A stretch of 64,000 nucleotides of DNA, taken from Escherichia coli (GTDB taxonomy: Bacteria > Pseudomonadota > Gammaproteobacteria > Enterobacterales > Enterobacteriaceae). This document shows, piece after piece, positions 10,129 through 44,840 of this stretch (its first letter is position 1; each line of letters begins with the position of its first letter). The DNA lies in NCBI RefSeq assembly GCF_013315695.1, contig NZ_CP054353.1. The stretch is one strand, 5' to 3'. The notes under the pieces are model-generated. The model was not told the DNA's origin and did not search any database. It was given only the letters and a program-made list of their open reading frames with translations. The position numbers were made by a program, and so were the translations under genes.

Positions 10129-11814
10129 ATGTACGATTTTAATCTGGTGTTGCTGCTGCTTCAGCAGATGTGCGTTTTTTTAGTCATTGCGTGGTTAATG
10201 AGTAAAACGCCATTATTCATACCGTTAATGCAGGTCACGGTTCGTCTGCCGCATAAATTTCTCTGCTACATCGTCTTTTCCATCTTCTGCATCATGGGCA
10301 CCTGGTTTGGGTTGCACATTGACGATTCTATTGCCAATACCCGTGCGATAGGCGCGGTAATGGGCGGCTTACTCGGCGGTCCGGTCGTCGGTGGGCTGGT
10401 TGGTCTGACCGGCGGGTTACATCGATATTCGATGGGGGGCATGACCGCGCTAAGTTGCATGATCTCGACCATCGTTGAAGGATTGCTCGGCGGCCTGGTA
10501 CACAGCATCCTGATCCGTCGCGGGCGCACTGATAAAGTCTTTAACCCCATTACCGCCGGTGCCGTCACGTTCGTCGCTGAAATGGTGCAAATGTTGATCA
10601 TCCTGGCGATCGCCCGACCTTATGAAGATGCGGTGCGTCTGGTGAGTAATATTGCTGCGCCAATGATGGTCACCAATACCGTCGGCGCGGCACTGTTTAT
10701 GCGTATATTGCTCGATAAACGCGCGATGTTTGAAAAATACACTTCAGCTTTTTCTGCCACTGCGCTGAAAGTGGCGGCCTCGACGGAAGGCATTTTGCGT
10801 CAGGGGTTTAACGAAGTGAACAGCATGAAAGTGGCACAGGTGCTGTATCAGGAGCTGGATATTGGTGCAGTCGCGATTACCGATCGAGAGAAATTGCTGG
10901 CCTTTACCGGAATTGGTGACGACCACCATTTACCCGGCAAACCGATTTCTTCAACTTATACCTTAAAAGCGATTGAAACCGGTGAAGTGGTCTACGCTGA
11001 TGGCAACGAAGTGCCTTACCGTTGCTCTTTGCATCCGCAATGCAAACTGGGGTCGACGCTGGTCATTCCGTTGCGTGGTGAAAATCAGCGAGTGATGGGT
11101 ACCATCAAATTGTATGAAGCCAAAAACCGTTTATTCAGTTCAATCAACCGCACGCTGGGCGAGGGGATTGCGCAACTGCTTTCGGCGCAGATCCTCGCCG
11201 GGCAATATGAGCGGCAAAAAGCGATGCTCACCCAGTCAGAGATCAAACTGCTTCACGCCCAGGTGAATCCCCATTTTTTGTTTAATGCGCTTAACACCAT
11301 TAAAGCGGTGATCCGCCGCGACAGCGAACAGGCCAGCCAGCTGGTGCAGTATCTTTCCACTTTTTTCCGCAAAAACTTAAAGCGGCCTTCGGAGTTTGTT
11401 ACTCTCGCCGACGAAATTGAACATGTGAACGCTTATCTGCAAATTGAAAAGGCGCGCTTCCAGTCGCGGTTGCAGGTCAACATTGCTATTCCGCAAGAAT
11501 TATCCCAGCAGCAATTGCCCGCGTTTACCCTGCAACCGATAGTGGAAAACGCCATTAAACATGGGACATCACAACTGCTGGATACAGGGCGAGTGGCAAT
11601 CAGCGCCCGACGTGAGGGGCAACATTTGATGCTGGAGATCGAAGACAATGCAGGTTTGTATCAACCGGTAACCAATGCCAGTGGGCTGGGGATGAATCTG
11701 GTGGATAAGCGTTTACGTGAACGGTTTGGCGATGACTATGGGATAAGCGTCGCCTGTGAGCCTGATAGTTACACCCGAATAACGTTACGACTACCATGGA
11801 GGGACGAGGCATGA
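10129..11814 (+). CDS. btsS: Sensor histidine kinase BtsS (YehU), LytS-type
   Basis: ORF 10114..11814; conserved start [13 protein letters not shown]; 5TM-Lyt, GAF and kinase regions. Confidence 0.9.
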
Positions 11815-12530
11815 TTAAAGTCTTAATTGTCGATGATGAACCGTTAGCACGGGAGAACCTGCGCGTATTTTTGCAGGAGCAGAGCGATATTGAAATCGTT
11901 GGAGAGTGTTCAAACGCCGTAGAAGGGATCGGCGCGGTGCATAAACTGCGCCCGGATGTGCTGTTTCTCGATATCCAGATGCCGCGCATCAGTGGTCTGG
12001 AAATGGTGGGGATGCTCGACCCGGAACATCGCCCGTATATTGTTTTTCTCACCGCGTTTGACGAATACGCCATTAAAGCCTTTGAAGAACATGCCTTTGA
12101 TTATCTGCTGAAGCCAATTGATGAAGCGCGACTGGAGAAAACGCTGGCGCGATTGCGTCAGGAGCGCAGCAAGCAGGATGTTTCGCTGTTACCAGAAAAT
12201 CAACAGGCGCTGAAATTTATCCCTTGTACGGGACATAGTCGGATTTATTTGCTGCAAATGAAAGATGTGGCATTTGTCAGCAGTCGGATGAGCGGTGTCT
12301 ACGTGACCAGTCACGAAGGGAAAGAGGGCTTTACCGAACTGACATTACGTACCCTGGAAAGTCGTACACCATTACTGCGCTGCCATCGTCAGTATCTGGT
12401 TAACCTCGCGCATTTACAGGAGATCCGTCTGGAAGATAACGGCCAGGCCGAGTTGATTTTGCGTAATGGCTTAACCGTGCCGGTCAGCCGCCGTTATCTG
12501 AAAAGCTTAAAAGAGGCGATTGGCCTGTAA
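11811..12530 (+). CDS. btsR: Response regulator BtsR (YehT), LytTR family
   Basis: [16 protein letters not shown] receiver start; ATGA start/stop overlap with btsS; 239 aa. Confidence 0.9.
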
Positions 12531-12576
12531 AAGACTGCTAAAATGGCTTTTTGCCTCATCAACACCTGAAGGCCTC

Positions 12577-13047
12577 ATGCTAAGTAATGATATTCTGCGC
12601 AGCGTGCGCTACATTTTGAAAGCCAATAATAATGACCTGGTGCGTATTCTGGCGCTGGGTAATGTCGAAGCCACCGCGGAACAGATCGCCGTCTGGCTAC
12701 GTAAAGAAGACGAAGAGGGTTTTCAGCGTTGTCCGGACATTGTTTTGTCTTCATTCCTCAATGGCCTGATTTATGAAAAACGCGGCAAGGATGAGTCTGC
12801 TCCGGCACTGGAGCCGGAACGTCGCATTAATAACAACATCGTGCTGAAAAAAATACGCATCGCGTTTTCGCTTAAAACCGATGACATTCTGGCAATCCTC
12901 ACCGAACAGCAGTTCCGCGTTTCGATGCCGGAAATTACGGCGATGATGCGTGCACCGGATCATAAAAACTTCCGCGAATGCGGCGATCAATTTTTACGTT
13001 ATTTTCTGCGTGGACTGGCAGCGCGCCAGCATGTGAAGAAAAGCTAA
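12577..13047 (+). CDS. yehS: YehS (DUF1456 family)
   Basis: ORF 12520..13047 with likely start at MLSNDILRS; position after btsR. Confidence 0.8.
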   Translation: MLSNDILRSVRYILKANNNDLVRILALGNVEATAEQIAVWLRKEDEEGFQRCPDIVLSSFLNGLIYEKRGKDESAPALEPERRINNNIVLKKIRIAFSLKTDDILAILTEQQFRVSMPEITAMMRAPDHKNFRECGDQFLRYFLRGLAARQHVKKS

Positions 13048-13054
13048 GACGGGT

Positions 13055-13084
13055 ATGGCGGCCATGCGAAACATGGCCGCCGAC
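13055..13084. terminator. Bidirectional hairpin between convergent yehS and yehR
   Basis: ggcggccatg-cgaaa-catggccgcc perfect stem. Confidence 0.55.
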
Positions 13085-13087
13085 AGA

Positions 13088-13549
13088 TTATTTCACTTCT
13101 TTAAAACCAGCGGCTTTCATCACCAGTTCCATTTGCGCCATAGTGATACCTTTTTTGGCATCTTCAGCAGAAACGTTGATTCCTGAAATACCCTGCAGGG
13201 CTTTAAAATCCACTTTTTCCATATCAATAGTCACGTTTTCCTGCGCGTAGGTATCGGTATAGGTTAATTTTTCTTCAACACCCGCGATGTTTTTGTATTT
13301 GGCGCTTAACGGCTCAAGTGTCCTGGCGGCATCTTCTTTGGTGGTTGCACCAATGGAGGCAAATTGAATTTTGGTTTCAGAAGATTGCTTAAGCACCTTG
13401 TCACCTTTGTAGACATAGGTAATGGCAATTTCAGTGCCGTTCAGATTGGCGCTGAATTTCTTTGATTCTTCTTTGTCACCGCAGCCAGCAAGAGAGAAAA
13501 CCAGAACAGATGCAACAACAAGGGAAAACAGCTTATTGAAAGCCTTCAT
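13088..13549 (-). CDS. yehR: Lipoprotein YehR
   Basis: Signal peptide with lipobox (LAGCG); start at MKAFNKLF. Confidence 0.8.
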   Translation of the reverse strand: MKAFNKLFSLVVASVLVFSLAGCGDKEESKKFSANLNGTEIAITYVYKGDKVLKQSSETKIQFASIGATTKEDAARTLEPLSAKYKNIAGVEEKLTYTDTYAQENVTIDMEKVDFKALQGISGINVSAEDAKKGITMAQMELVMKAAGFKEVK

Positions 13550-13673
13550 GTAAAACTCCATTTTATTTAATCAAGGAACTGGTGACTCTCACCAGGGGCT
13601 ATATAGGATATGCCTAATACTATGGCGTGAGCAGTCCGGAACAGGAGTAGAACTCTTAATAAAAAGCACTATT

Positions 13674-15674
13674 TCATCCTTGTTGCTGAAGCATGGGGAA
13701 TAATTGTTCGCAAAGCAAAACACCGTTATTCATTGCTTCTACCCGTGCCTCGCTTTCTGTATTACGAAATTGTCCCAACACATGTGCCAGCCGATAAAAA
13801 CCCACCGCGGTGAGGTCATTCGCCAGCAACTCTGCCTGACCAATAGCACTCTGTTCCTGATAGCGCCAGCCGTTATGGAGCAGTTGAATAAGTAACGCCT
13901 GGCAGCGCATCAGCAACTGATGAGCGGTAGACGGCACAGGCAGAACGCTGGCAGAAGGTAGCGGTGCCACAGGCGCAGTTTCTGCGTCCAGCGCCCAGGC
14001 GCGGGTTTTTGTCATCATCACCCGTGGTTCCAGTGTCAATTGCCCCTCTACAAAACTGACAAAGCCAGAAACCAGGCTCACGGGGTTGTCTGTTTGTTGC
14101 AAAAGCGCCGCCATGCGTTCAACGGCAAAAGGAGAACAGGCAGATGCCGGAAGGGATAACGTCAGCACATTATCTTCCCCTTCGCCACTGATTACCTGCG
14201 CATCCAGTGTCTGGCGGCTGCTATCCCAACCGAGCGAAATACACTCCGCTACCGGCAGAATAAATAAGTTATCGACCTGGTTGAGTGGTCGTATGCAGGC
14301 GGGGGGACGCTGGCGTAAATATTCCCGCAAAGCCACAATGCCCGGCTGGCGCAACGGCGCGCTCAACATTTGCCAGGCGTCTGGCGACAGTGGAACAACA
14401 CTACTCAAGCGGTTACGGGTCGCTAACAGCAGCTCGCCATCGGCACTGCGTTTTGCTGCTTGTGAAACAATTTGCCCACCAGCCAGTGCGCCAGCCTGAA
14501 AACTAAATAGCCGACGTTTTGTCGCGGGAGCGTTTTCTTGTTCGCTTCTCGGCCAACTACGCGAAAGGTGCAAAATACTGCCGGTGTCGGGATCGGTGAA
14601 CCAGATGCGTAAACCATACTGCTCAATATCCTGCCAGCAACGCATACCTAAAGACACCAGCCGCAGATGATCAAGCTTTGCTTCTCCGGCAATGCCAGAG
14701 CCAACGACCGTGCGCCACGGCACAGGAGGAACTTCACCAACACTGTCGCGCCGCGCCATCTCTTGTGCGCAATTTAATCGACTGTTTAATGCCGCAAGCT
14801 GACGTAAGCATTCTCCGGCATGGTAGTGGCTGGCGCGGGCGTGGAAGGCATCAACGCTGGCGCGCAATTGCCGTAGCGATTCACTCACCCATCGCCAGTT
14901 GCAGCGTTCCGCCGCTTGCTGCGCGCGGCTGAAAGCGGCCTCGTAATGAATAAGCGGCTGGCTGATGCCGCTCAGCCATAATGCCTGGCTTAGTTGCTGA
15001 ACATATTGACGACACGCGTTGCCCTCTTCGCTGGCAAACGGATCGTCAGATGATGTGACGTGTTCGCTGCGCATCTGCCAGATTAAATGGTTAAATTCTG
15101 CTTGCTGCGCTTTGGCCTGGACAAAGGCCTGTACTGCCAGCACAACATGTTCGCAAAGTGTTCCTTCAATACAATCACAGCGTGCGAAACGAATGCTGCT
15201 GCGGGAATAAAAACGTACATCGCTCATCGGTAAGCGGGCAGAGGGAATTTCGCCCGGCGTACAGAACAACTCAATGGTGATGCCTTTAGCGACCAGCGCC
15301 TGCGCGCGTTTGCGGGTGGCATCGGGAAGGGTAGCCAGTTCTTCTAGCCAGATTGCCGGATCCCACTCTTCTTCTTTTTCCGTAGGCTGGGTGGTGGCGC
15401 AAAGTCGCTGATAACTTAAAACCAGCATCACGCGATGGCGGCACATGCCGCTGGCCCCGCAGCTGCATTGAGCCTCTTTCAGTGCCTGACCGTTCGCCAG
15501 CTGGGTACGGACACCGTCACTGAAGGTGGCGATTAAAGCGCCGTTCTTATGGCTGATTTCCGGGACGTTGCCATTTTCCAGTTCCTTAAGACTGCGTTTA
15601 ACAAAACCGGCATTGCTTAACGCCGTCAGGGCCTGCGGCGTCAGTTCTAATAATTCCGGACGTAGTGAATTCAT
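13674..15674 (-). CDS. yehQ: YehQ, SWIM zinc-finger domain protein
   Basis: 666-aa ORF; Cys/His SWIM-like motif near the N-terminus; gene order. Confidence 0.75.
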   Translation of the reverse strand: MNSLRPELLELTPQALTALSNAGFVKRSLKELENGNVPEISHKNGALIATFSDGVRTQLANGQALKEAQCSCGASGMCRHRVMLVLSYQRLCATTQPTEKEEEWDPAIWLEELATLPDATRKRAQALVAKGITIELFCTPGEIPSARLPMSDVRFYSRSSIRFARCDCIEGTLCEHVVLAVQAFVQAKAQQAEFNHLIWQMRSEHVTSSDDPFASEEGNACRQYVQQLSQALWLSGISQPLIHYEAAFSRAQQAAERCNWRWVSESLRQLRASVDAFHARASHYHAGECLRQLAALNSRLNCAQEMARRDSVGEVPPVPWRTVVGSGIAGEAKLDHLRLVSLGMRCWQDIEQYGLRIWFTDPDTGSILHLSRSWPRSEQENAPATKRRLFSFQAGALAGGQIVSQAAKRSADGELLLATRNRLSSVVPLSPDAWQMLSAPLRQPGIVALREYLRQRPPACIRPLNQVDNLFILPVAECISLGWDSSRQTLDAQVISGEGEDNVLTLSLPASACSPFAVERMAALLQQTDNPVSLVSGFVSFVEGQLTLEPRVMMTKTRAWALDAETAPVAPLPSASVLPVPSTAHQLLMRCQALLIQLLHNGWRYQEQSAIGQAELLANDLTAVGFYRLAHVLGQFRNTESEARVEAMNNGVLLCEQLFPMLQQQG

Positions 15675-16737
15675 GACTGAAGATTCTCCGCAAGCCAGGC
15701 CGCCAGCTCGCCCGGTGTCATGGCGGCTATTTGTGCGCCGACATTAACTAGCGCCTGGGCCGTATCGTGGTCATAGCAAGGTGTTGCGGTGCTATCGAGC
15801 GCCGCCAGTCCCAGCACTTTGATGCCGCTCTGGACACACTTTTTCACCTGATGCGTCAGTAATGATGATGAACCCCCTTCGTAAAAATCGCTCACGAGGA
15901 TAATGACGCTTTTCGCTGGTTGTTCAATAAGTTGCCGACCATATTCCATGGCACTGGCGATATTGGTTCCGCCGCCTAATTGCACTTTCATTAATAACTC
16001 TACCGGATCGGCAACGTCTGCCGTGAGATCAACCACGCTGGTGTCAAACGCCACCAGATGGGTACGAATACCGGGTAACTGCCATAAACAGGCCGCCATC
16101 ACCGCTGAGTGGATCACCGAGTCCACCATTGATCCGCTTTGATCAACCAGTAAGACCAGTTGCCATTGTTCGCTTTGGCGTTTAATGCGGCTGTTAAAGC
16201 GGGGGGATTCGATATACAACTTGCCGTGTTGCGGGTGCCAGTGTTGCAGGTTGGCGCGCAGAGTACTTTTGAAATCAAAGTTTCGCGCCAGTGGAATAAA
16301 TGAGCGGCGACGGCGATCGCGGACACCAGAAAAAGCCTGACGAACTTCCTTTGCCAGTCGCGCCATAATTTCTTCCACAACCTGGCGTACTTTTCCGAAG
16401 GCTGCATACGTTCCAGCACGTCGAGATTTGTCACCACATCTTCAATGCCGTAGCGCAGTACGGCATCGCTTTCCAGCCGTTCAATCACCTGTTGCGGAAA
16501 CAGCGTGTGAATACTGTTGATCCACTCAGGGGTGGTGAGATTTGAGCCACCTAATCCACCGGAGCGTTCACCACGCTGGAGCCGTTCAGGATCGCGCCCG
16601 TACAGCCACTCCAGCGCGTGGTCTATCTGCCGGGCGTTGTCATCCAGCCCACAAAGCGTCGTTTCTGCCGCTTCGCCAAGAATTAATCGCCAGCGTTGTA
16701 GCTCACGGGTGGTCAGAAGATCGTTCAGTTCAGACAT
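15671..16737 (-). pseudogene. yehP: yehP (von Willebrand factor A domain), apparently frameshifted
   Basis: Two overlapping minus-strand ORFs in different frames (16114..16737 N-terminal part; 15671..16378 VWA part with DQSGSM motif); 1067-nt span is not a multiple of 3. Confidence 0.6.
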
Positions 16738-19009
16738 GGAAAACTCCCCAGTGTTGCAGCGATGTCAGTGCCTGCTGTTCGAGTTGTTGATGATGTGCAA
16801 TGGCTTGCGGTGGACAATGCAACGGCATTTGCAGCGCTGAAATGGGAAGCTGTGCGAGCTGGTAATGCTCAAGCACCTGATGCGCCAGCGTCCCGCGTTC
16901 TCGTGGTGGTAGCCAGGCCATCGCCGCGCGTAAATTGGGCAGGGCGTTAATAAAATCGTCGTCACTCAGTTGATTTAAATGACTACTGAAACCGGCGATA
17001 AATGCCGGCTGACAGGCCAGTTGATGACGGGCTAATGCCAGCAAACCGTGCAGCGCCTCGCCGGATTGTGCCGGGGATAACTGCGCCAGCATCGTCAGCG
17101 CCGCTTCGGCACTGGCGTTGGGATGTTCCAGACGCATTAGTGCGCCAAGAGCCGCGCCGCGATCCAGCGCCGGGGCATGAATCGCCTGACTGCGGCGCTC
17201 CAGTAAGGCTACCGCCGCAGAAAGCGAAACGCCGGGTAAATTAACGCCGCTATGTAGATCGCGCAGGATATGGCAAAGCGCTTGCCAGCTATGCAGGTGA
17301 GCGTGAAACTCCTTTTCATCCGGTCTGCCGTTGGATTCACACAGCCAGAGTGTGCGATCGATAGCTGCGCATAACGTCGTCTGTAATATCTGCGCGCCTT
17401 GCATACCGCTAATTTCATCCAGCCGCCATAAGGCGTATAGCACTTCCAGCGCCTGGCCCATTTCGGCAAACTGATTTTCCTGGGCGATTAATAATGTAAG
17501 TTGCTCCAGTAATTGTTGACTGAAGGACGCCAGACCCGCTAACGCCGCCTGGCTAAGACATGTGGTGATACTGCCGATTCCACCCGCGTCCAGCATATCG
17601 GCTTCTAATTTATGGCGTGCGGCTTCCTGGAGTGTGGCACCAAAGCAGGCGGCCTCAATTAATGCCGCATGTTGGCTAAGCGGGCGGGTTAATTTCCAGC
17701 GTTCTTCACCGTTGCCTGCAAGTGTCAGTGTACTTCCCTGCTGGCGCACAACCCCTGGGATCTCCAGTATTACCAGCCGATGTAACACCTGACTTTGCGC
17801 CAGTCCATCGGGGGTAAAGCGATTTAAGGTAAGCTCCGCCGGAAAAGAGATTCCGGTACGTTCCAGTTCGCAGGTGACATCTTTTGGCAGAGGTGGCTGT
17901 GGCGTCGAGGGGGCAAGTTTACCGAATCCGTCACCCGCTAATGTGTCTATCAACGTTAGCAGAATCGGATCGGTATCGGGATGAATAACGCCGCGATAGC
18001 TCCACGGCAACGGCGCGTTCAGGGCTTCTTTGATCAGCGAGCCGGCTATAGCATCCAGCCAGTCAGTGCGTAACGGTAGTGTATGACCGCGCAACTGTGC
18101 CAGTGCCATCGCATGCAGATGAGCGGCAGCCATATCCGCTGTTGAAGCAGGCAAGTGGTGCTGGCGCAAACGGGTAAGAACCGTTTTCAGTAGTTGTTCA
18201 CCTGCCTGCTGCAAGCCCCACCGCCAGCACCAGTTTTGCCAGACCGGGGCAGGCATTCCTGAAAGGTATCCTGCCAGCACATCAAGGCGCTTTTCACTGT
18301 ATGGCGTGAGATAGCAACCTGTAACGGCATCTGCCAGCGACGGCAATTCTGGCTTGTTAATTTCTTGCGGGCATTCGCGCCACATTTTTGCCAGTGCCGG
18401 AGCGTGCCAGCCACCGCAGACAACTAACACGTCGCCATTATTTTGCTGCATCGCCCATCCAATCCAGCGGGCCATAAAGGCTTCGCGCTGACGATTGAGA
18501 GCATCTCCGGGGGAGTCGCCCCGCAGTTGGGCAAAATAGTGCGCCAGTGCAGAGGGTAATGCAGTTTGCTGGCTTTCATCTTCGAACAAGTGATCCCACA
18601 GGGTGTCGCTGTTATCCATGCGGGTGGCACGCAGCAGCAAGGCCTGGCTTTCCTCTTGCATATCAGGCGAATCGTCCTCTTCTTCACTTTGTGCCCAGCA
18701 AGGCAAATCGATGAAGTAAGTTTGTGCCTGAATACGACGTGCGGCTTGTAGCGCCTGCCACTCCGGCGAAAATTCAGCAAATGGCGTCCAGGCACCACGC
18801 CCGGGGGCTGCACCGTCCTGATACTGGCAATAACTGTAAATAGCTACCGGAAGCTGGTGGGCTAACAACAGTTCGTCTACCCGGTCATTAAAATCAGCCG
18901 GGCCTTCAATCAACACGTATCGTGGCCGCTGGCTTTCGATTAACGATTTCACCAGCCGGGCGCAGGCCGGACTATGATGCCGGATGCCGACAATTAACGG
19001 CTCGCTCAT
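16730..19009 (-). CDS. yehM: YehM, uncharacterized large protein
   Basis: ORF 16730..19150; likely start at MSEPLIVGIRHH giving 759 aa. Confidence 0.8.
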   Translation of the reverse strand: MSEPLIVGIRHHSPACARLVKSLIESQRPRYVLIEGPADFNDRVDELLLAHQLPVAIYSYCQYQDGAAPGRGAWTPFAEFSPEWQALQAARRIQAQTYFIDLPCWAQSEEEDDSPDMQEESQALLLRATRMDNSDTLWDHLFEDESQQTALPSALAHYFAQLRGDSPGDALNRQREAFMARWIGWAMQQNNGDVLVVCGGWHAPALAKMWRECPQEINKPELPSLADAVTGCYLTPYSEKRLDVLAGYLSGMPAPVWQNWCWRWGLQQAGEQLLKTVLTRLRQHHLPASTADMAAAHLHAMALAQLRGHTLPLRTDWLDAIAGSLIKEALNAPLPWSYRGVIHPDTDPILLTLIDTLAGDGFGKLAPSTPQPPLPKDVTCELERTGISFPAELTLNRFTPDGLAQSQVLHRLVILEIPGVVRQQGSTLTLAGNGEERWKLTRPLSQHAALIEAACFGATLQEAARHKLEADMLDAGGIGSITTCLSQAALAGLASFSQQLLEQLTLLIAQENQFAEMGQALEVLYALWRLDEISGMQGAQILQTTLCAAIDRTLWLCESNGRPDEKEFHAHLHSWQALCHILRDLHSGVNLPGVSLSAAVALLERRSQAIHAPALDRGAALGALMRLEHPNASAEAALTMLAQLSPAQSGEALHGLLALARHQLACQPAFIAGFSSHLNQLSDDDFINALPNLRAAMAWLPPRERGTLAHQVLEHYQLAQLPISALQMPLHCPPQAIAHHQQLEQQALTSLQHWGVFHV

Positions 19010-19019
19010 GCATCTTTCC

Positions 19020-20108
19020 TCACGGCAGGCGGTGGCGAGCTTGATAATAAGCCTGCCAGTGAGCTTCTTTATGTGTAGCGACACGTTGTTCGAAGTAACG
19101 GCGCAGACGTGCGCGATCTTCTTCGTTATCTTTGACGATGGTTCCGGCAATACAGTCCACCAGGTCGGCTGGCTCCCCCGCGCGATTCGCTAAAAACCAG
19201 GCGCGGACACCCACAGCGTGGGCTACGTTCACGGCTTCAGCGGTGGACATAATCGCTGTCAGTGTATCCATTGACGTTTTCTTTTCGCCGTTGGCACGCA
19301 GATCGCGGAAGGTGCGTACCAGTAACTCCAGTACCGCGTCAGGAACTTTATGCGGAATGCCACTATGGGCCAATAAACGCGCCGAAGCACTGGCGACCAG
19401 TTCCAGTTCCTGGGCGAAATCCATAATCGGAAAGACCGTTTCAAAATCGAATCGACGCTTTAGCGCAGCGCTCATTTCATTGACGCCGCGATCGCGGGTA
19501 TTGGCAGTGGCAATAATATTAAAGCCTTCTCGCGCATAGAGCTGACTGGCTTCACCAGTGAGTTCCGGCACCGTCATTACCCTGTCAGAAAGCATACCTA
19601 ACAGACAGTCTTGTACTTCCAGCGGTGTACGCGTTATCTCTTCAAAACGGACGATTTTGCCGTCGCGCATTCCCTGGTAAAGCGGGGCAGGGACCAGTGC
19701 TTCCGTTGACGGACCATGGTTGATAAGCAGGGCGTAGTTCCAGCCGTACTTGATTTGATCTTCGGTGGTAGATGCGCCGCCCTGGATGGTTAACCCGGCA
19801 TCGCCGCTAATAGCGGTTGCCAGTAATTCAGACAGGAGAGATTTTGCGGTGCCAGGTTCCCCCACCAACATCAAACCGCGCCCGGTGGCAAGAGTGACTA
19901 ACATGCGTTCGACAGCGGAGGGACTAATCACCACTTTACGGCTAATATTTTGCGCGCTATCGCCAAGGATAAAAGCACGGGCCGCAGGCAAACTTAACTG
20001 CCAACCGGGCGGGCAAGGTGCGTGATCATTTTGTTTTAATTTTGCCAGTTCATCGGCGTATAACACAGCGGCAGGCGGACGCTGCAGATGATTATTCTGC
20101 GGTGACAT
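19020..20108 (-). CDS. yehL: YehL, MoxR-type AAA+ ATPase
   Basis: Walker A (GEPGTAKS); likely start at MSPQNNHL giving 362 aa. Confidence 0.85.
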   Translation of the reverse strand: MSPQNNHLQRPPAAVLYADELAKLKQNDHAPCPPGWQLSLPAARAFILGDSAQNISRKVVISPSAVERMLVTLATGRGLMLVGEPGTAKSLLSELLATAISGDAGLTIQGGASTTEDQIKYGWNYALLINHGPSTEALVPAPLYQGMRDGKIVRFEEITRTPLEVQDCLLGMLSDRVMTVPELTGEASQLYAREGFNIIATANTRDRGVNEMSAALKRRFDFETVFPIMDFAQELELVASASARLLAHSGIPHKVPDAVLELLVRTFRDLRANGEKKTSMDTLTAIMSTAEAVNVAHAVGVRAWFLANRAGEPADLVDCIAGTIVKDNEEDRARLRRYFEQRVATHKEAHWQAYYQARHRLP

Positions 20109-20224
20109 ATATTCATCCCTGAAATGTATTAATGAAATAAACGATATTTTACGCGCAATAAATGTTTGGCGCATTAGTTGTTTGAGCGGAAAATATCTGG
20201 AAAGCAGATCACAGTAAATAAAAA

Positions 20225-20250
20225 AACCTGCTGGTGAGGCAGGTTCTTTT
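20225..20250. terminator. Bidirectional hairpin upstream of yehL
   Basis: aacctgc-tggtgag-gcaggtt with T-runs on both sides. Confidence 0.5.
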
Positions 20251-20548
20251 ATTTACTACTTTCAGGCCTAACACCACGGCCTGTGCAACATCGTGTTCCA
20301 ACGAACGAATTATAACCATCGGTGGACCCCGTTGCAATTAAGATAATGAGATTTATAATCCTGACTGTTGGGAGGTTGCGCCGGATCGAACCCATTTCAA
20401 GTCCTGGCTACCGGACGGGTGGTGCCGCAGGTAGTGCCCTGATCCGGAGTGCAACATCGTGGTCCAACATACGTAAACCAGTATCGACAGGCAGGTGATG
20501 CTGCCAACTTACTGATTTAGTGTATGATGGTGTTTTTGAGGTGCTCCA

Positions 20549-20824
20549 GTGGCTTCTGTTTCTATCAGCTGTCCCTCCTGTTCAGCTACTGACGGGGTGG
20601 TGCGTAACGGCAAAAGCACCGCCGGACATCAGCGCTATCTCTGCTCTCACTGCCGTAAAACATGGCAACTGCAGTTCACTTACACCGCTTCTCAACCCGG
20701 TACGCACCAGAAAATCATTGATATGGCCATGAATGGCGTTGGATGCCGGGCAACAGCCCGCATTATGGGCGTTGGCCTCAACACGATTTTACGTCACTTA
20801 AAAAACTCAGGCCGCAGTCGGTAA
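20549..20824 (+). CDS. insA: IS1 InsA
   Basis: 91-aa ORF inside IS1 copy A. Confidence 0.9.
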
Positions 20825-21246
20825 CCTCGCGCATACAGCCGGGCAGTGACGTCATCGTCTGCGCGGAAATGGACGAACAGTGGGGCTATGTCGGGGCTAA
20901 ATCGCGCCAGCGCTGGCTGTTTTACGCGTATGACAGGCTCCGGAAGACGGTTGTTGCGCACGTATTCGGTGAACGCACTATGGCGACGCTGGGGCGTCTT
21001 ATGAGCCTGCTGTCACCCTTTGACGTGGTGATATGGATGACGGATGGCTGGCCGCTGTATGAATCCCGCCTGAAGGGAAAGCTGCACGTAATCAGCAAGC
21101 GATATACGCAGCGAATTGAGCGGCATAACCTGAATCTGAGGCAGCACCTGGCACGGCTGGGACGGAAGTCGCTGTCGTTCTCAAAATCGGTGGAGCTGCA
21201 TGACAAAGTCATCGGGCATTATCTGAACATAAAACACTATCAATAA
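20743..21246 (+). CDS. insB: IS1 InsB (expressed as InsAB' fusion by frameshifting)
   Basis: 167-aa ORF overlapping insA inside IS1 copy A. Confidence 0.9.
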
Positions 21247-21256
21247 GTTGGAGTCA

Positions 21257-21967
21257 TTACCCAGTAGCATATTCCAGACCGCCTTCCTGAATAATCTGAT
21301 CCATAACATCCTCACGCTCTTTATATCTCGTGCAGTGCAGTTCAAGTGCCGCGAGTACAGCCATTACCGGTGATGGTAATTTTGTCGTTTTCGGGCTGTT
21401 AATCAGATCGATCGCCTGAGCGATGAAGTTTTGCCACTCTAAAGTACAGGCGCTGAAGTCAAATGTAGCTGTTTTGTTATCCCGTTGCGACACGCCACAG
21501 GCTAAGCGACGTAACTGGGTTAATTTATCTACAGGTGTAACAGGATCTCCGGGAAAGCGGCGATGGCTTAAGGTGGTGGGTACGACTTCAAGCGGAAAAA
21601 CGACAGCAATATCTTTTGCCAGCCACGGTAAAATAACGTCTGTATTTTTGTCAGCCACGTAGATTTCTGGTGTAACTGAGGGCTGTTCCTGAATGATGGT
21701 AGAAAAGTCAGATAATTCGAGAGTTTTCGTTACCGTTCGAGTATGTTTCGATGTAGCATTCTCCGCTTGTTCCACATACCCCTTTTTCGTTTTCTCCGCA
21801 ATCAGCTTGAGTTCCGCTTTTTCCGCCGCCGCAGCATCTGCAAAGCTTTTTACCTGACTTTGCCCGTTGGTGCCGACTTTGCCCCAACTGATATTCAGTT
21901 CGTTTCCCTGCTGCTCCACCGCCCAGAATTTATGTGATTTTTCGTCCTGATAAATATAGGTTTTCAT
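21257..21967 (-). pseudogene. yehI: yehI-like WGR-domain protein, N-terminal 235 codons only, truncated by IS1 copy A
   Basis: ORF begins MKTYIYQDEKSHKFWAV (WGR) and its stop codon lies inside the IS1 terminus. Confidence 0.65.
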
Positions 21968-23658
21968 TGCAAAGTCCTTTTAATCAAAAAGTGATTCGAT
22001 GTCGTTAATGAGTTCGCTGGCGGTGATGTCGTCGAGCATGGAAAAAGTAAGTAAAGGTTGTTTACCGTAGCGATCATCTGGCGAGGTGATTTTTACGCTT
22101 TCAACAGGTAACAGGTCGCCATAACCTGTTTCGCCGTAAATTAATGAAAAATGTTCTGTTTCAAGTTCGAGATCGCCATAAGGGGTAGATTTGCGCATCG
22201 CATAGACGCTGCCGCTTTCTTCCAGGCGTTGCCAGCCTCGGCGCACTAGCCCGACAATGCGCCCTGCCTGGCAAAGACGTCCGCTCCAGCGTGTCAGTTC
22301 ATGAGTATTCTGTTCATTATCAGCAAGACGATAACTACCACGATCGAGCTGTTGGAAGGGGGGAAGCAGTTCGTAATCAGCGTAAATTTGCCTGAATGCA
22401 GCGGCAGATTCAGGGGGGATTTCCAGCATATGCGGAATACCGATGTTTCCTGCTGGTAGCGTGAATAGCTCATCCTGCATATCGCTGTAAGTGCTGTCTT
22501 CTGCGACCCGGAAGCAGGCAATCAGCGTGTTTTCCTCAGTATATACCCCCCATAACAGTCGTCGGGTTAAGTGACGTACCAGTGGGTGCTCCACCATGAA
22601 CAGGCGGAACTGCTCTGTTGTCCAGCGTCTGCGCTGGCACATAGCCTGTTCCAGACGATCAATCTGCTGGCTGGCTATGGCGCGTACATCTTTTTTCAAC
22701 TGTTTGAAGAGGTTAACGGCGTCAGTTGCCAGTGTTTTATCATCGCTCTGGTTTGGTTTGGGTAAGTCTTTCAGGACTTTGCCGTTTGCGTCACGAACCA
22801 TGGGTTTTAAGGTTTCGTCAAAACCAACGGTGAATTGACGTGGGCCGAAATCAAGTGTCAGCGAGCCGTTGATATCAAGCCCCAAATCTGGAGCCAGACG
22901 GTCTTCCAGTTCAGCCATTGTCAGTCCGCGATTTTTGGCGACCATATTGATTTTGTCGCTCGCATGTTCCTGCAATGCGGCGAATTTAATTTTTTGCGCA
23001 ATGCCATTAAGCAACATTAGCGCAATGTCGCTACCGATACTGGCTAACACATCCAGCCCGTAAACCGCGCGTTTATGCTGGGATTCACCCGGCCAGGCGC
23101 GGATAAGCGGGGTTAATTTACGCGCGGTGTCGTCATCGCCTAAAATTCCCAGCGAGGTAAATGCCCAGTTTTCTTTTGCGGGAGCGCCAGCTTCTGTCCA
23201 GGCGGTATACAGATCCCAGCCAAAGTCAGCCAGGGAATCGCGGGTGAAGGTGTCTTTGATGATCTCCAGCCCAGCGTAGGCGGTAATGTCGCGTGAAAAG
23301 CTCAACATAGTGCCGAGGTGGCGCATAGCGTCATCTGGCAGAGGCAGGTTGTTACTTTTAAGCCGTGGTCTGCGCCATAAGGTGAACTGATAAAAGCCGG
23401 GCAGTGGGGCGATTTTTGCGGGATGATCCTCAAGCGGATCGCTATCAAATAATGTTGCCAGCGCTGCTAAAATATCAGGTTGATTATATCCTTGGGCGAT
23501 TTCCTCAATCGTTTCTCGCTGGTTTAATTTCACTAGCAGGAGGAGTGCCTGGCGGGCATATTCCCGATTTTGGCACGGTTTGCCCAGCGCCAAAGGCAGT
23601 AGCCCGGCGGCGGCATGGCGCGGGTTATTTGCCAGCCAATTAACGGCATCCTTGTAAG

Positions 23659-31148: not shown

Positions 31149-31203
31149 GGTGATGCTGCCAACTTACTGATTTAGTGTATGATGGTGTTTTTGAGGTGCT
31201 CCA

Positions 31204-31479
31204 GTGGCTTCTGTTTCTATCAGCTGTCCCTCCTGTTCAGCTACTGACGGGGTGGTGCGTAACGGCAAAAGCACCGCCGGACATCAGCGCTATCTCTGCT
31301 CTCACTGCCGTAAAACATGGCAACTGCAGTTCACTTACACCGCTTCTCAACCCGGTACGCACCAGAAAATCATTGATATGGCCATGAATGGCGTTGGATG
31401 CCGGGCAACAGCCCGCATTATGGGCGTTGGCCTCAACACGATTTTACGTCACTTAAAAAACTCAGGCCGCAGTCGGTAA
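31204..31479 (+). CDS. insA: IS1 InsA
   Basis: Identical to the other copies. Confidence 0.9.
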
Positions 31480-31901
31480 CCTCGCGCATACAGCCGGGCA
31501 GTGACGTCATCGTCTGCGCGGAAATGGACGAACAGTGGGGCTATGTCGGGGCTAAATCGCGCCAGCGCTGGCTGTTTTACGCGTATGACAGGCTCCGGAA
31601 GACGGTTGTTGCGCACGTATTCGGTGAACGCACTATGGCGACGCTGGGGCGTCTTATGAGCCTGCTGTCACCCTTTGACGTGGTGATATGGATGACGGAT
31701 GGCTGGCCGCTGTATGAATCCCGCCTGAAGGGAAAGCTGCACGTAATCAGCAAGCGATATACGCAGCGAATTGAGCGGCATAACCTGAATCTGAGGCAGC
31801 ACCTGGCACGGCTGGGACGGAAGTCGCTGTCGTTCTCAAAATCGGTGGAGCTGCATGACAAAGTCATCGGGCATTATCTGAACATAAAACACTATCAATA
31901 A
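31398..31901 (+). CDS. insB: IS1 InsB
   Basis: Identical to the other copies. Confidence 0.9.
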
Positions 31902-31967
31902 GTTGGAGTCATTACCTAAATAGGCTTGATGAAAGTTCTATTTCTATATTTTTCAATATACAAATTT

Positions 31968-39112: not shown

Positions 39113-39170
39113 CTTTTAATTCCTTCATGACAGGTAATGTAAGGTACGCGATGACGGTAATGACTCCAAC

Positions 39171-39674
39171 TTATTGATAGTGTTTTATGTTCAGATAATG
39201 CCCGATGACTTTGTCATGCAGCTCCACCGATTTTGAGAACGACAGCGACTTCCGTCCCAGCCGTGCCAGGTGCTGCCTCAGATTCAGGTTATGCCGCTCA
39301 ATTCGCTGCGTATATCGCTTGCTGATTACGTGCAGCTTTCCCTTCAGGCGGGATTCATACAGCGGCCAGCCATCCGTCATCCATATCACCACGTCAAAGG
39401 GTGACAGCAGGCTCATAAGACGCCCCAGCGTCGCCATAGTGCGTTCACCGAATACGTGCGCAACAACCGTCTTCCGGAGCCTGTCATACGCGTAAAACAG
39501 CCAGCGCTGGCGCGATTTAGCCCCGACATAGCCCCACTGTTCGTCCATTTCCGCGCAGACGATGACGTCACTGCCCGGCTGTATGCGCGAGGTTACCGAC
39601 TGCGGCCTGAGTTTTTTAAGTGACGTAAAATCGTGTTGAGGCCAACGCCCATAATGCGGGCTGTTGCCCGGCAT
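39171..39674 (-). CDS. insB: IS1 InsB
   Basis: Identical to the other copies. Confidence 0.9.
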
Positions 39675-39868
39675 CCAACGCCATTCATGGCCATATCAAT
39701 GATTTTCTGGTGCGTACCGGGTTGAGAAGCGGTGTAAGTGAACTGCAGTTGCCATGTTTTACGGCAGTGAGAGCAGAGATAGCGCTGATGTCCGGCGGTG
39801 CTTTTGCCGTTACGCACCACCCCGTCAGTAGCTGAACAGGAGGGACAGCTGATAGAAACAGAAGCCAC
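39593..39868 (-). CDS. insA: IS1 InsA
   Basis: Identical to the other copies. Confidence 0.9.
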
Positions 39869-40145
39869 TGGAGCACCTCAAAAACACCATCATACACTAA
39901 ATCAGTAAGTTGGCAGCATCACCCGCGATGACAATACCACTTAATAATACCTTTTAAATACCTTTGCGGTGAAAACTTGACCGCTGTAACATTTTTTCTG
40001 ATGAATCGAGCCAACAGAAAACGCTGAAAAAACATCCAAAAGATGGAAAAACTCGCCCGTAACGACCAGGATTATGATTGCCCGCAAAAGGCGGGCCAGG
40101 ACAATCCATAGCCGATATCCAATCGGAATTTACGGGAGCATAGTA

Positions 40146-43571: not shown

Positions 43572-43854
43572 GGACGGTATATGACTAACCTGTTTGTTCG
43601 TAGCGGAATTTCTTTTGTCGATCGTAGCGAAGTTTTAGCCCATATCGGTAATGAGATGCTCGCGAAAGGTGTGGTTCATGATACCTGGCCACAGGCATTA
43701 ATTGCCAGAGAAGCAGAATTCCCTACCGGGATAATGCTTGAGCAGCACGCCATTGCAATACCGCATTGTGAGGCGATTCATGCTAAGTCGTCAGCCATTG
43801 GTGATGCTGCCAACTTACTGATTTAGTGTATGATGGTGTTTTTGAGGTGCTCCA

Positions 43855-44130
43855 GTGGCTTCTGTTTCTATCAGCTGTCCCTCCTGTTCAGCTACTGACG
43901 GGGTGGTGCGTAACGGCAAAAGCACCGCCGGACATCAGCGCTATCTCTGCTCTCACTGCCGTAAAACATGGCAACTGCAGTTCACTTACACCGCTTCTCA
44001 ACCCGGTACGCACCAGAAAATCATTGATATGGCCATGAATGGCGTTGGATGCCGGGCAACAGCCCGCATTATGGGCGTTGGCCTCAACACGATTTTACGT
44101 CACTTAAAAAACTCAGGCCGCAGTCGGTAA
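43855..44130 (+). CDS. insA: IS1 InsA
   Basis: Identical to the other copies. Confidence 0.9.
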
Positions 44131-44552
44131 CCTCGCGCATACAGCCGGGCAGTGACGTCATCGTCTGCGCGGAAATGGACGAACAGTGGGGCTATGTCGG
44201 GGCTAAATCGCGCCAGCGCTGGCTGTTTTACGCGTATGACAGGCTCCGGAAGACGGTTGTTGCGCACGTATTCGGTGAACGCACTATGGCGACGCTGGGG
44301 CGTCTTATGAGCCTGCTGTCACCCTTTGACGTGGTGATATGGATGACGGATGGCTGGCCGCTGTATGAATCCCGCCTGAAGGGAAAGCTGCACGTAATCA
44401 GCAAGCGATATACGCAGCGAATTGAGCGGCATAACCTGAATCTGAGGCAGCACCTGGCACGGCTGGGACGGAAGTCGCTGTCGTTCTCAAAATCGGTGGA
44501 GCTGCATGACAAAGTCATCGGGCATTATCTGAACATAAAACACTATCAATAA
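44049..44552 (+). CDS. insB: IS1 InsB
   Basis: Identical to the other copies. Confidence 0.9.
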
Positions 44553-44840
44553 GTTGGAGTCATTACCTCAGCCATTTATCTGTTAAGGCCAACAAATAAA
44601 GTTCATTTTCAGCAAGCGGATGATGATAACGACGTGGCGGTATCGTTGGTTATTGCGTTGATTGTGGAAAATCCGCAGCAGCAATTGAAACTTTTACGCT
44701 GTTTATTTGGCAAGTTACAACAGCCCGATATCGTCGAGACACTAATTACTCTTCCTGAAACTCAGTTAAAGGAATACTTCACAAAGTATGTTTTAGATTC
44801 AGACGAATAAATCCCTCTGTAACAATAAAAAGGACTGTTT

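Follow-up and report, generated by a model that had tools for sequence, protein, structure and literature searches.

The 64,000-nt stretch of Escherichia coli DNA analysed here, referred to below as the window, carries the genes yehL-yehM-yehP-yehQ-yehR in the same order as K-12, and the locus of interest is yehP (Table 1). In the ORF list, yehP is represented by two minus-strand ORFs that share 265 nt but are read in different frames, and the span from the native start to the native stop leaves a remainder of 2 when divided by 3. The first-pass annotation had reported both features, and both were borne out here; the two-ORF pattern reflects a genuine lesion in the sequence and not a chance arrangement of reading frames. 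The translation of the upstream ORF begins MSELNDLLTTRELQRW and runs to a stop codon at 16114-16116, whilst the downstream ORF ends with ...GELAAWLAENLQS, its stop codon overlapping the ATG of the next gene, yehQ, in the tetranucleotide ATGA.

Table 1. Features of the yehP locus and its surroundings (window coordinates unless an accession is given)
Feature	Position	Strand	Description
yehP pseudogene	15671..16737	-	1067 nt; intact gene 1137 nt / 378 aa
Upstream yehP ORF	16114..16737	-	207 aa from ATG; native YehP residues 1-115, then 92 residues out of frame, ended early by TGA
Downstream yehP ORF	15671..16378	-	235 aa from an internal GTG; native frame, YehP residues 144-378
yehP deletion junction	16391..16392	-	GGAAA/AGTACG on the minus strand, split after GGAAA; 70 bp gone between
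yehQ	13674..15674	-	SWIM zinc-finger protein, 666 aa; intact
yehM	16730..19009	-	DUF5682 protein, 759 aa; intact; differs from the ancestral allele of the lineage by D692N and A749T
yehL	19020..20108	-	MoxR-family AAA+ ATPase, 362 aa; intact; presumed partner of YehP
IS1A copy	20494..21261		Replaces 7,287 bp; 386 bp upstream of yehL
MSB1_4I yehP	NZ_LR898874, JMX41_RS16650		Annotated 'yehP, vWA domain-containing protein, frameshifted'; identical to the window locus

The annotated yehP gene is 1137 nt long and encodes 378 aa in both K-12 MG1655 and strain MS 21-1, so that the K-12 protein length given in the first-pass annotation was correct. Alignment of the window with K-12 and with the near-identical intact allele of MS 21-1 opened one gap, corresponding to yehP nt 347-416 (codons 116-139), and revealed no other length difference; the loss that had been estimated at roughly 70 bp is exactly 70 bp. 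Outside the deletion, the window differs from K-12 at 33 of the 1067 aligned nucleotides (97% nucleotide identity) and from MS 21-1 at none. The absence of any difference between the remnant and an intact allele indicates that the lesion is young. Orthology with the K-12 gene (b2121, VWA domain-containing, 378 aa) is supported by this high nucleotide identity and by synteny, as both genes occupy the same chromosomal place between yehM and yehQ and the two genomes also have yehL, yehR, yehS and btsSR as common neighbours. The two loci differ in which gene is broken. K-12 yehP is intact, whereas the window gene is frameshifted by the deletion; conversely, yehQ is a complete 666-aa ORF in the window but is interrupted by an internal stop in K-12, where it is annotated as a pseudogene (K-12 MG1655 segment 7197-9197). 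The yehP orthologues have a continuous frame of 378 codons, whilst the window has 1067 nt divided between two frames. Because the 70-bp deletion breaks this continuous frame, we classify the window yehP as a pseudogene rather than as a functional member of the family.

An exhaustive test of possible placements located the deletion junction at a single position with 0 bp of exact microhomology, which argues against repeat-mediated slippage. An imperfect pair of 7-mers, CGGAAAG and CGGATAG, is found at the edges of the deletion; however, these are 71 bp apart rather than 70, and recombination between them would give a different product. Nor does a hairpin or quasi-palindrome account for the event, as the intact region folded as DNA was unexceptional (z=+0.84; 162 of 200 shuffled sequences folded as well). 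Translocation of the segment was rejected because the missing 70-mer has no copy elsewhere in the window, even when up to 3 mismatches are tolerated. Programmed frameshifting or phase variation was likewise rejected, given the lack of a slippery or repeat tract and the confinement of the allele to 4/5,426 complete genomes.

The consequences of the lesion for the protein can be read from the position of the deletion. In intact YehP, the Pfam domain VWA_CoxE (PF05762) covers residues 151-372 and matches the model from end to end (positions 1-222 of 222, E=1.1e-71), and the deletion falls a short way before the start of this domain, which is located entirely downstream of the frameshift. The coding sequence for the domain is therefore retained in the window, but it is out of frame with the yehP start codon. 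It includes the MIDAS motif DxSxS, read from the translation of the downstream ORF as DQSGS within LLVDQSGSM, which is predicted to bind metal. Translation from the native start would yield residues 1-115 followed by 92 aberrant residues and a premature stop, and for this reason the CoxE-type VWA domain would not be made.

To place the allele among other E. coli, window positions 16800-15600 (a 1201-bp query) were compared by megablast with 5,426 complete E. coli genomes. The yehP region is present in 5,335 of these, and at least 80% of the query was matched in 5,327. Among the approximately 70 records listed, full-length matches span 1271 bp in two aligned pieces, with the exception of four genomes that align to the query as one 1201-bp piece. 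A 40-bp query centred on the deletion junction, which cannot seed on intact alleles, found the identical junction in exactly four of the 5,426 genomes: MSB1_4I, from a rectal swab in Australia, and AF3, AF10 and AF14, from blood cultures in the UK. All four have the same junction and the same 1067-nt remnant as the window, and RefSeq/PGAP marks yehP as a 'frameshifted' pseudogene in each of them. MSB1_4I shows 100% identity to the window across the 13.2 kb from 9600 to 22800. Over the whole window, identity is 99.7%, with 80 mismatches that are mostly outside the yeh region, and a segment of approximately 5.1 kb, bounded by two IS1 copies in MSB1_4I, is missing from the window. These mismatches and the absent segment identify the two as separate assemblies, and the window is a fifth, slightly different isolate of the lineage that carries the yehP deletion.

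Comparison of the carriers gives the order of events in this lineage. AF10 and AF14 have the yehP deletion, but in both genomes yehI and the upstream gene encoding a WGR+DUF4132 protein are still intact. In AF3, MSB1_4I and the window, the deletion is accompanied by an IS1A lesion; relative to AF10 and AF14, the IS1A copy at 20494-21261 has taken the place of yehI and yehK in their entirety and of the greater part of the WGR+DUF4132 gene. AF3 and MSB1_4I also have an IS4 further upstream. Because AF10 and AF14 carry the deletion in the absence of the IS1A lesion, the yehP deletion is older than the IS1 event and has been inherited vertically: it is ancestral, and the IS1A lesion came later. 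Among genomes with an intact yehP, MS 21-1 is the closest; it already has a frameshifted yehK, but its mlrA is intact, whilst a prophage is found in mlrA in all four carriers and in the window.

Some of the genes flanking yehP have also changed since the deletion. The lineage has acquired YehM D692N and A749T, YehQ D530N and, in AF3, G413S, all of which are nonsynonymous; the YehM and YehQ substitutions are G-to-A transitions, located in the window at 16765 and 16936 (yehM) and 14087 (yehQ). There is one synonymous change within the lineage in yehL, and there are no lineage changes in yehR, yehS or btsSR. The ratio of 4:0 nonsynonymous to synonymous changes in yehM and yehQ suggests a possible relaxation of constraint, with which it is compatible, although so few changes cannot tell relaxed selection apart from the surplus of nonsynonymous substitutions that clones commonly show over short time spans.

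The presumed partner of YehP, YehL, is encoded two genes upstream. YehL is one of two MoxR-family AAA+ ATPases in E. coli K-12 and the namesake of the YehL subfamily (PMC3893208). Its assignment to that subfamily rests on the literature (PMC3893208); its NCBIfam matches to the MoxR-clade proteins GvpN and MadB are weak and below the curated cut-offs, and NCBIfam gave at most sub-threshold matches for the proteins of the module. In characterized MoxR-VWA pairs, the metal site of the VWA protein captures a substrate peptide, which the ATPase then remodels (PMC7159879), and in the RavA-ViaA pair the VWA protein binds the ATPase physically and stimulates its activity (PMC3893208). The yeh cluster resembles these systems in two respects: intact YehP matches VWA_CoxE end to end, a likeness to RavA-ViaA, CoxD-CoxE and NorQ-NorD, and YehP is encoded in the same cluster as a MoxR ATPase, as in the pairs described (PMC7159879). 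It is unlike them in having the additional DUF5682 (YehM) and SWIM (YehQ) proteins and, in the window, in having a broken VWA partner. By analogy with the other MoxR-VWA pairs, YehP may act as a substrate-binding adaptor and co-chaperone of YehL, in which case its loss would disable the YehL-YehM-YehP-YehQ module. No relative with a solved structure was found by sequence for these proteins. A search of the PADLOC-DB defence models with YehL, YehM, YehP and YehQ returned no family at E<=0.01, and we therefore rejected a defence-system identity for the module.

The remaining members of the module may also be affected. As the ATG of yehQ overlaps the stop codon of the broken yehP, yehQ is left without its translational coupling partner, and its expression is probably lowered by termination 440 nt upstream, which would act both by abolishing the ATGA coupling and by polarity. 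H-NS binds both yehL and yehM, and only in hns/stpA mutants are these genes derepressed (PMC3686432); the yeh module is therefore largely silent in the laboratory.

Three other explanations for the state of yehP were weighed against simple decay. That the genome truly has an intact yehP, from which 70 bp were dropped during assembly, might be entertained because the window and MSB1_4I could be related assemblies, given their identity across 13.2 kb. However, the one junction is found in four complete genomes that were sequenced independently, by no fewer than two projects and in at least two countries, as well as in the window, and the carriers differ from each other both in SNPs and in local structure, some having the IS1A deletion and some lacking it. 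The allele also nests coherently in the history of the lineage, in genomes with and without the later IS1 deletion. Furthermore, loss of 70 bp from unique, non-repetitive and non-homopolymeric sequence is an atypical mode of error, and the folding potential of the region (z=+0.84) is not unusual. As five assemblies share a single junction in unique sequence, an assembly indel is very unlikely, and we consider the probability of an artefact to be close to negligible. A split gene, in which the downstream ORF is translated alone, as 235 aa or as 231 aa from the ATG at 16366, and still works with YehL, is also improbable. The downstream ORF does encompass the VWA_CoxE match in full (151-372), its MIDAS motif is undamaged, the in-frame GTG (16378) and ATG (16366) just after the junction could give a VWA-only fragment, and the remnant has gained no further mutations. 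On the other hand, this lack of mutations is expected anyway in a young lesion. The possibility that a new promoter within the gene drives this ORF was examined and rejected, as no sigma-70-like promoter was found in 15600-16900, and the ATG is preceded by only a weak Shine-Dalgarno-like sequence, GGAAG, as read from the sequence. Ribosomes in the shifted frame pass both internal starts and continue for another 260 nt; because the shifted upstream frame reads through them, re-initiation by coupling is unavailable. Lastly, the N-terminal approximately 140 residues are part of full-length YehP in essentially all E. coli. On these grounds the downstream ORF is probably not translated.

Whether the loss was favoured by selection is a separate matter. 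On a pathoadaptive reading, positive selection would have favoured the knocking out of the yeh MoxR-VWA module in a human-associated lineage that includes blood-culture isolates, and in its fullest form this reading holds that the MoxR-VWA-SWIM-DUF5682 module and its WGR/DUF4132 neighbours were dismantled in a human extraintestinal lineage, with the yehP deletion first and the IS-mediated loss of yehI and yehK next. If that were the case, the silent yeh module would be costly, or its function counter-selected in the host. Several observations could be read in this way: one module has received successive hits (the yehK frameshift, the yehP deletion, IS4 and the 7.3-kb IS1A deletion), the changes in yehM and yehQ comprise four nonsynonymous and no synonymous substitutions, and three of the four carriers are from blood cultures. 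Yet the allele is rare (4/5,426 genomes), the counts are too small for a test of selection, and IS hits would be expected everywhere in a strain so rich in IS1, of which the window alone contains four copies. Silencing of the module by H-NS under laboratory conditions (PMC3686432) means that its loss is probably phenotypically silent, and unrelated lineages have varied lesions that are typical of neutral decay. We regard adaptive loss as highly improbable, both in its general form and as the stepwise dismantling of the whole region.

Simple decay is the explanation that we favour, and we hold with high confidence that yehP in this lineage is a recent, non-functional pseudogene derived from a single ancestral deletion, most likely by neutral decay. 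In this model, the 70-bp deletion would have been a single spontaneous event in the ancestor from which a small E. coli lineage descends, with loss of YehP function as its likely result, and neutral decay would have been followed by clonal inheritance. The deletion is most likely to have been neutral, as the module is dispensable, silenced by H-NS and repeatedly decaying in E. coli.

Lesions in the same region of other strains illustrate this last point. The unrelated bovine isolate OkiPb01695 has lost yehP independently, through a deletion of approximately 2.1 kb that joins a truncated yehM directly to yehQ (segment 4736-6016), so that yehM lacks its 3′ part and yehP is gone entirely; its yehI is frameshifted. 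In Shigella sonnei, yehM and yehL are deleted in lineages 2 and 3 (PMC12795559), and in a sublineage of ST131 the resistance transposon TnMB1860 is located in the DUF4132/yeh region (PMC9334617). Taken with the yehQ pseudogene of K-12 and the frameshifted yehK of MS 21-1, these lesions make a lineage-specific yehP deletion an ordinary event, and the present allele adds to the recurrent and diverse lesions by which the yeh/DUF4132 region, silenced by H-NS, is degenerating in both E. coli and Shigella. The pseudogene was already flagged in RefSeq and represents ordinary gene decay, with nothing novel in kind; our analysis documents the exact lesion behind the existing 'frameshifted' flag. The allele nevertheless has practical uses. 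The 40-bp junction offers a handy clonal marker by which members of this small lineage, recorded in Australia and the UK, can be recognized, and the carriers are natural yehP nulls for the study of YehL-subfamily MoxR proteins, available both with yehI and yehK (AF10 and AF14) and without them (AF3, MSB1_4I and the window).

Outside the yeh cluster, the window contains several further traces of mobile elements. The four IS1 copies in the 64 kb are located at 20494-21261, 31149-31916, 39156-39923 and approximately 43800-44571. At 31149-31916 there is a single IS1 where MSB1_4I has two, flanking the segment of approximately 5.1 kb, which in that genome encodes an HNH endonuclease, a tyrosine integrase, rcnR, rcnA, rcnB and a truncated fimbrial adhesin gene; the nickel/cobalt efflux genes have apparently been lost from the strain of the window by IS1-IS1 recombination. 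In the first part of the window (approximately 1-9907), all that is left of mlrA (yehV) is a stub of 66 nt (approximately 9842-9907), and a lambdoid prophage that carries DinI-like, tail fibre, Lom and gpJ genes is integrated there. This prophage probably accounts for the majority of the 80 mismatches that distinguish the window from MSB1_4I.
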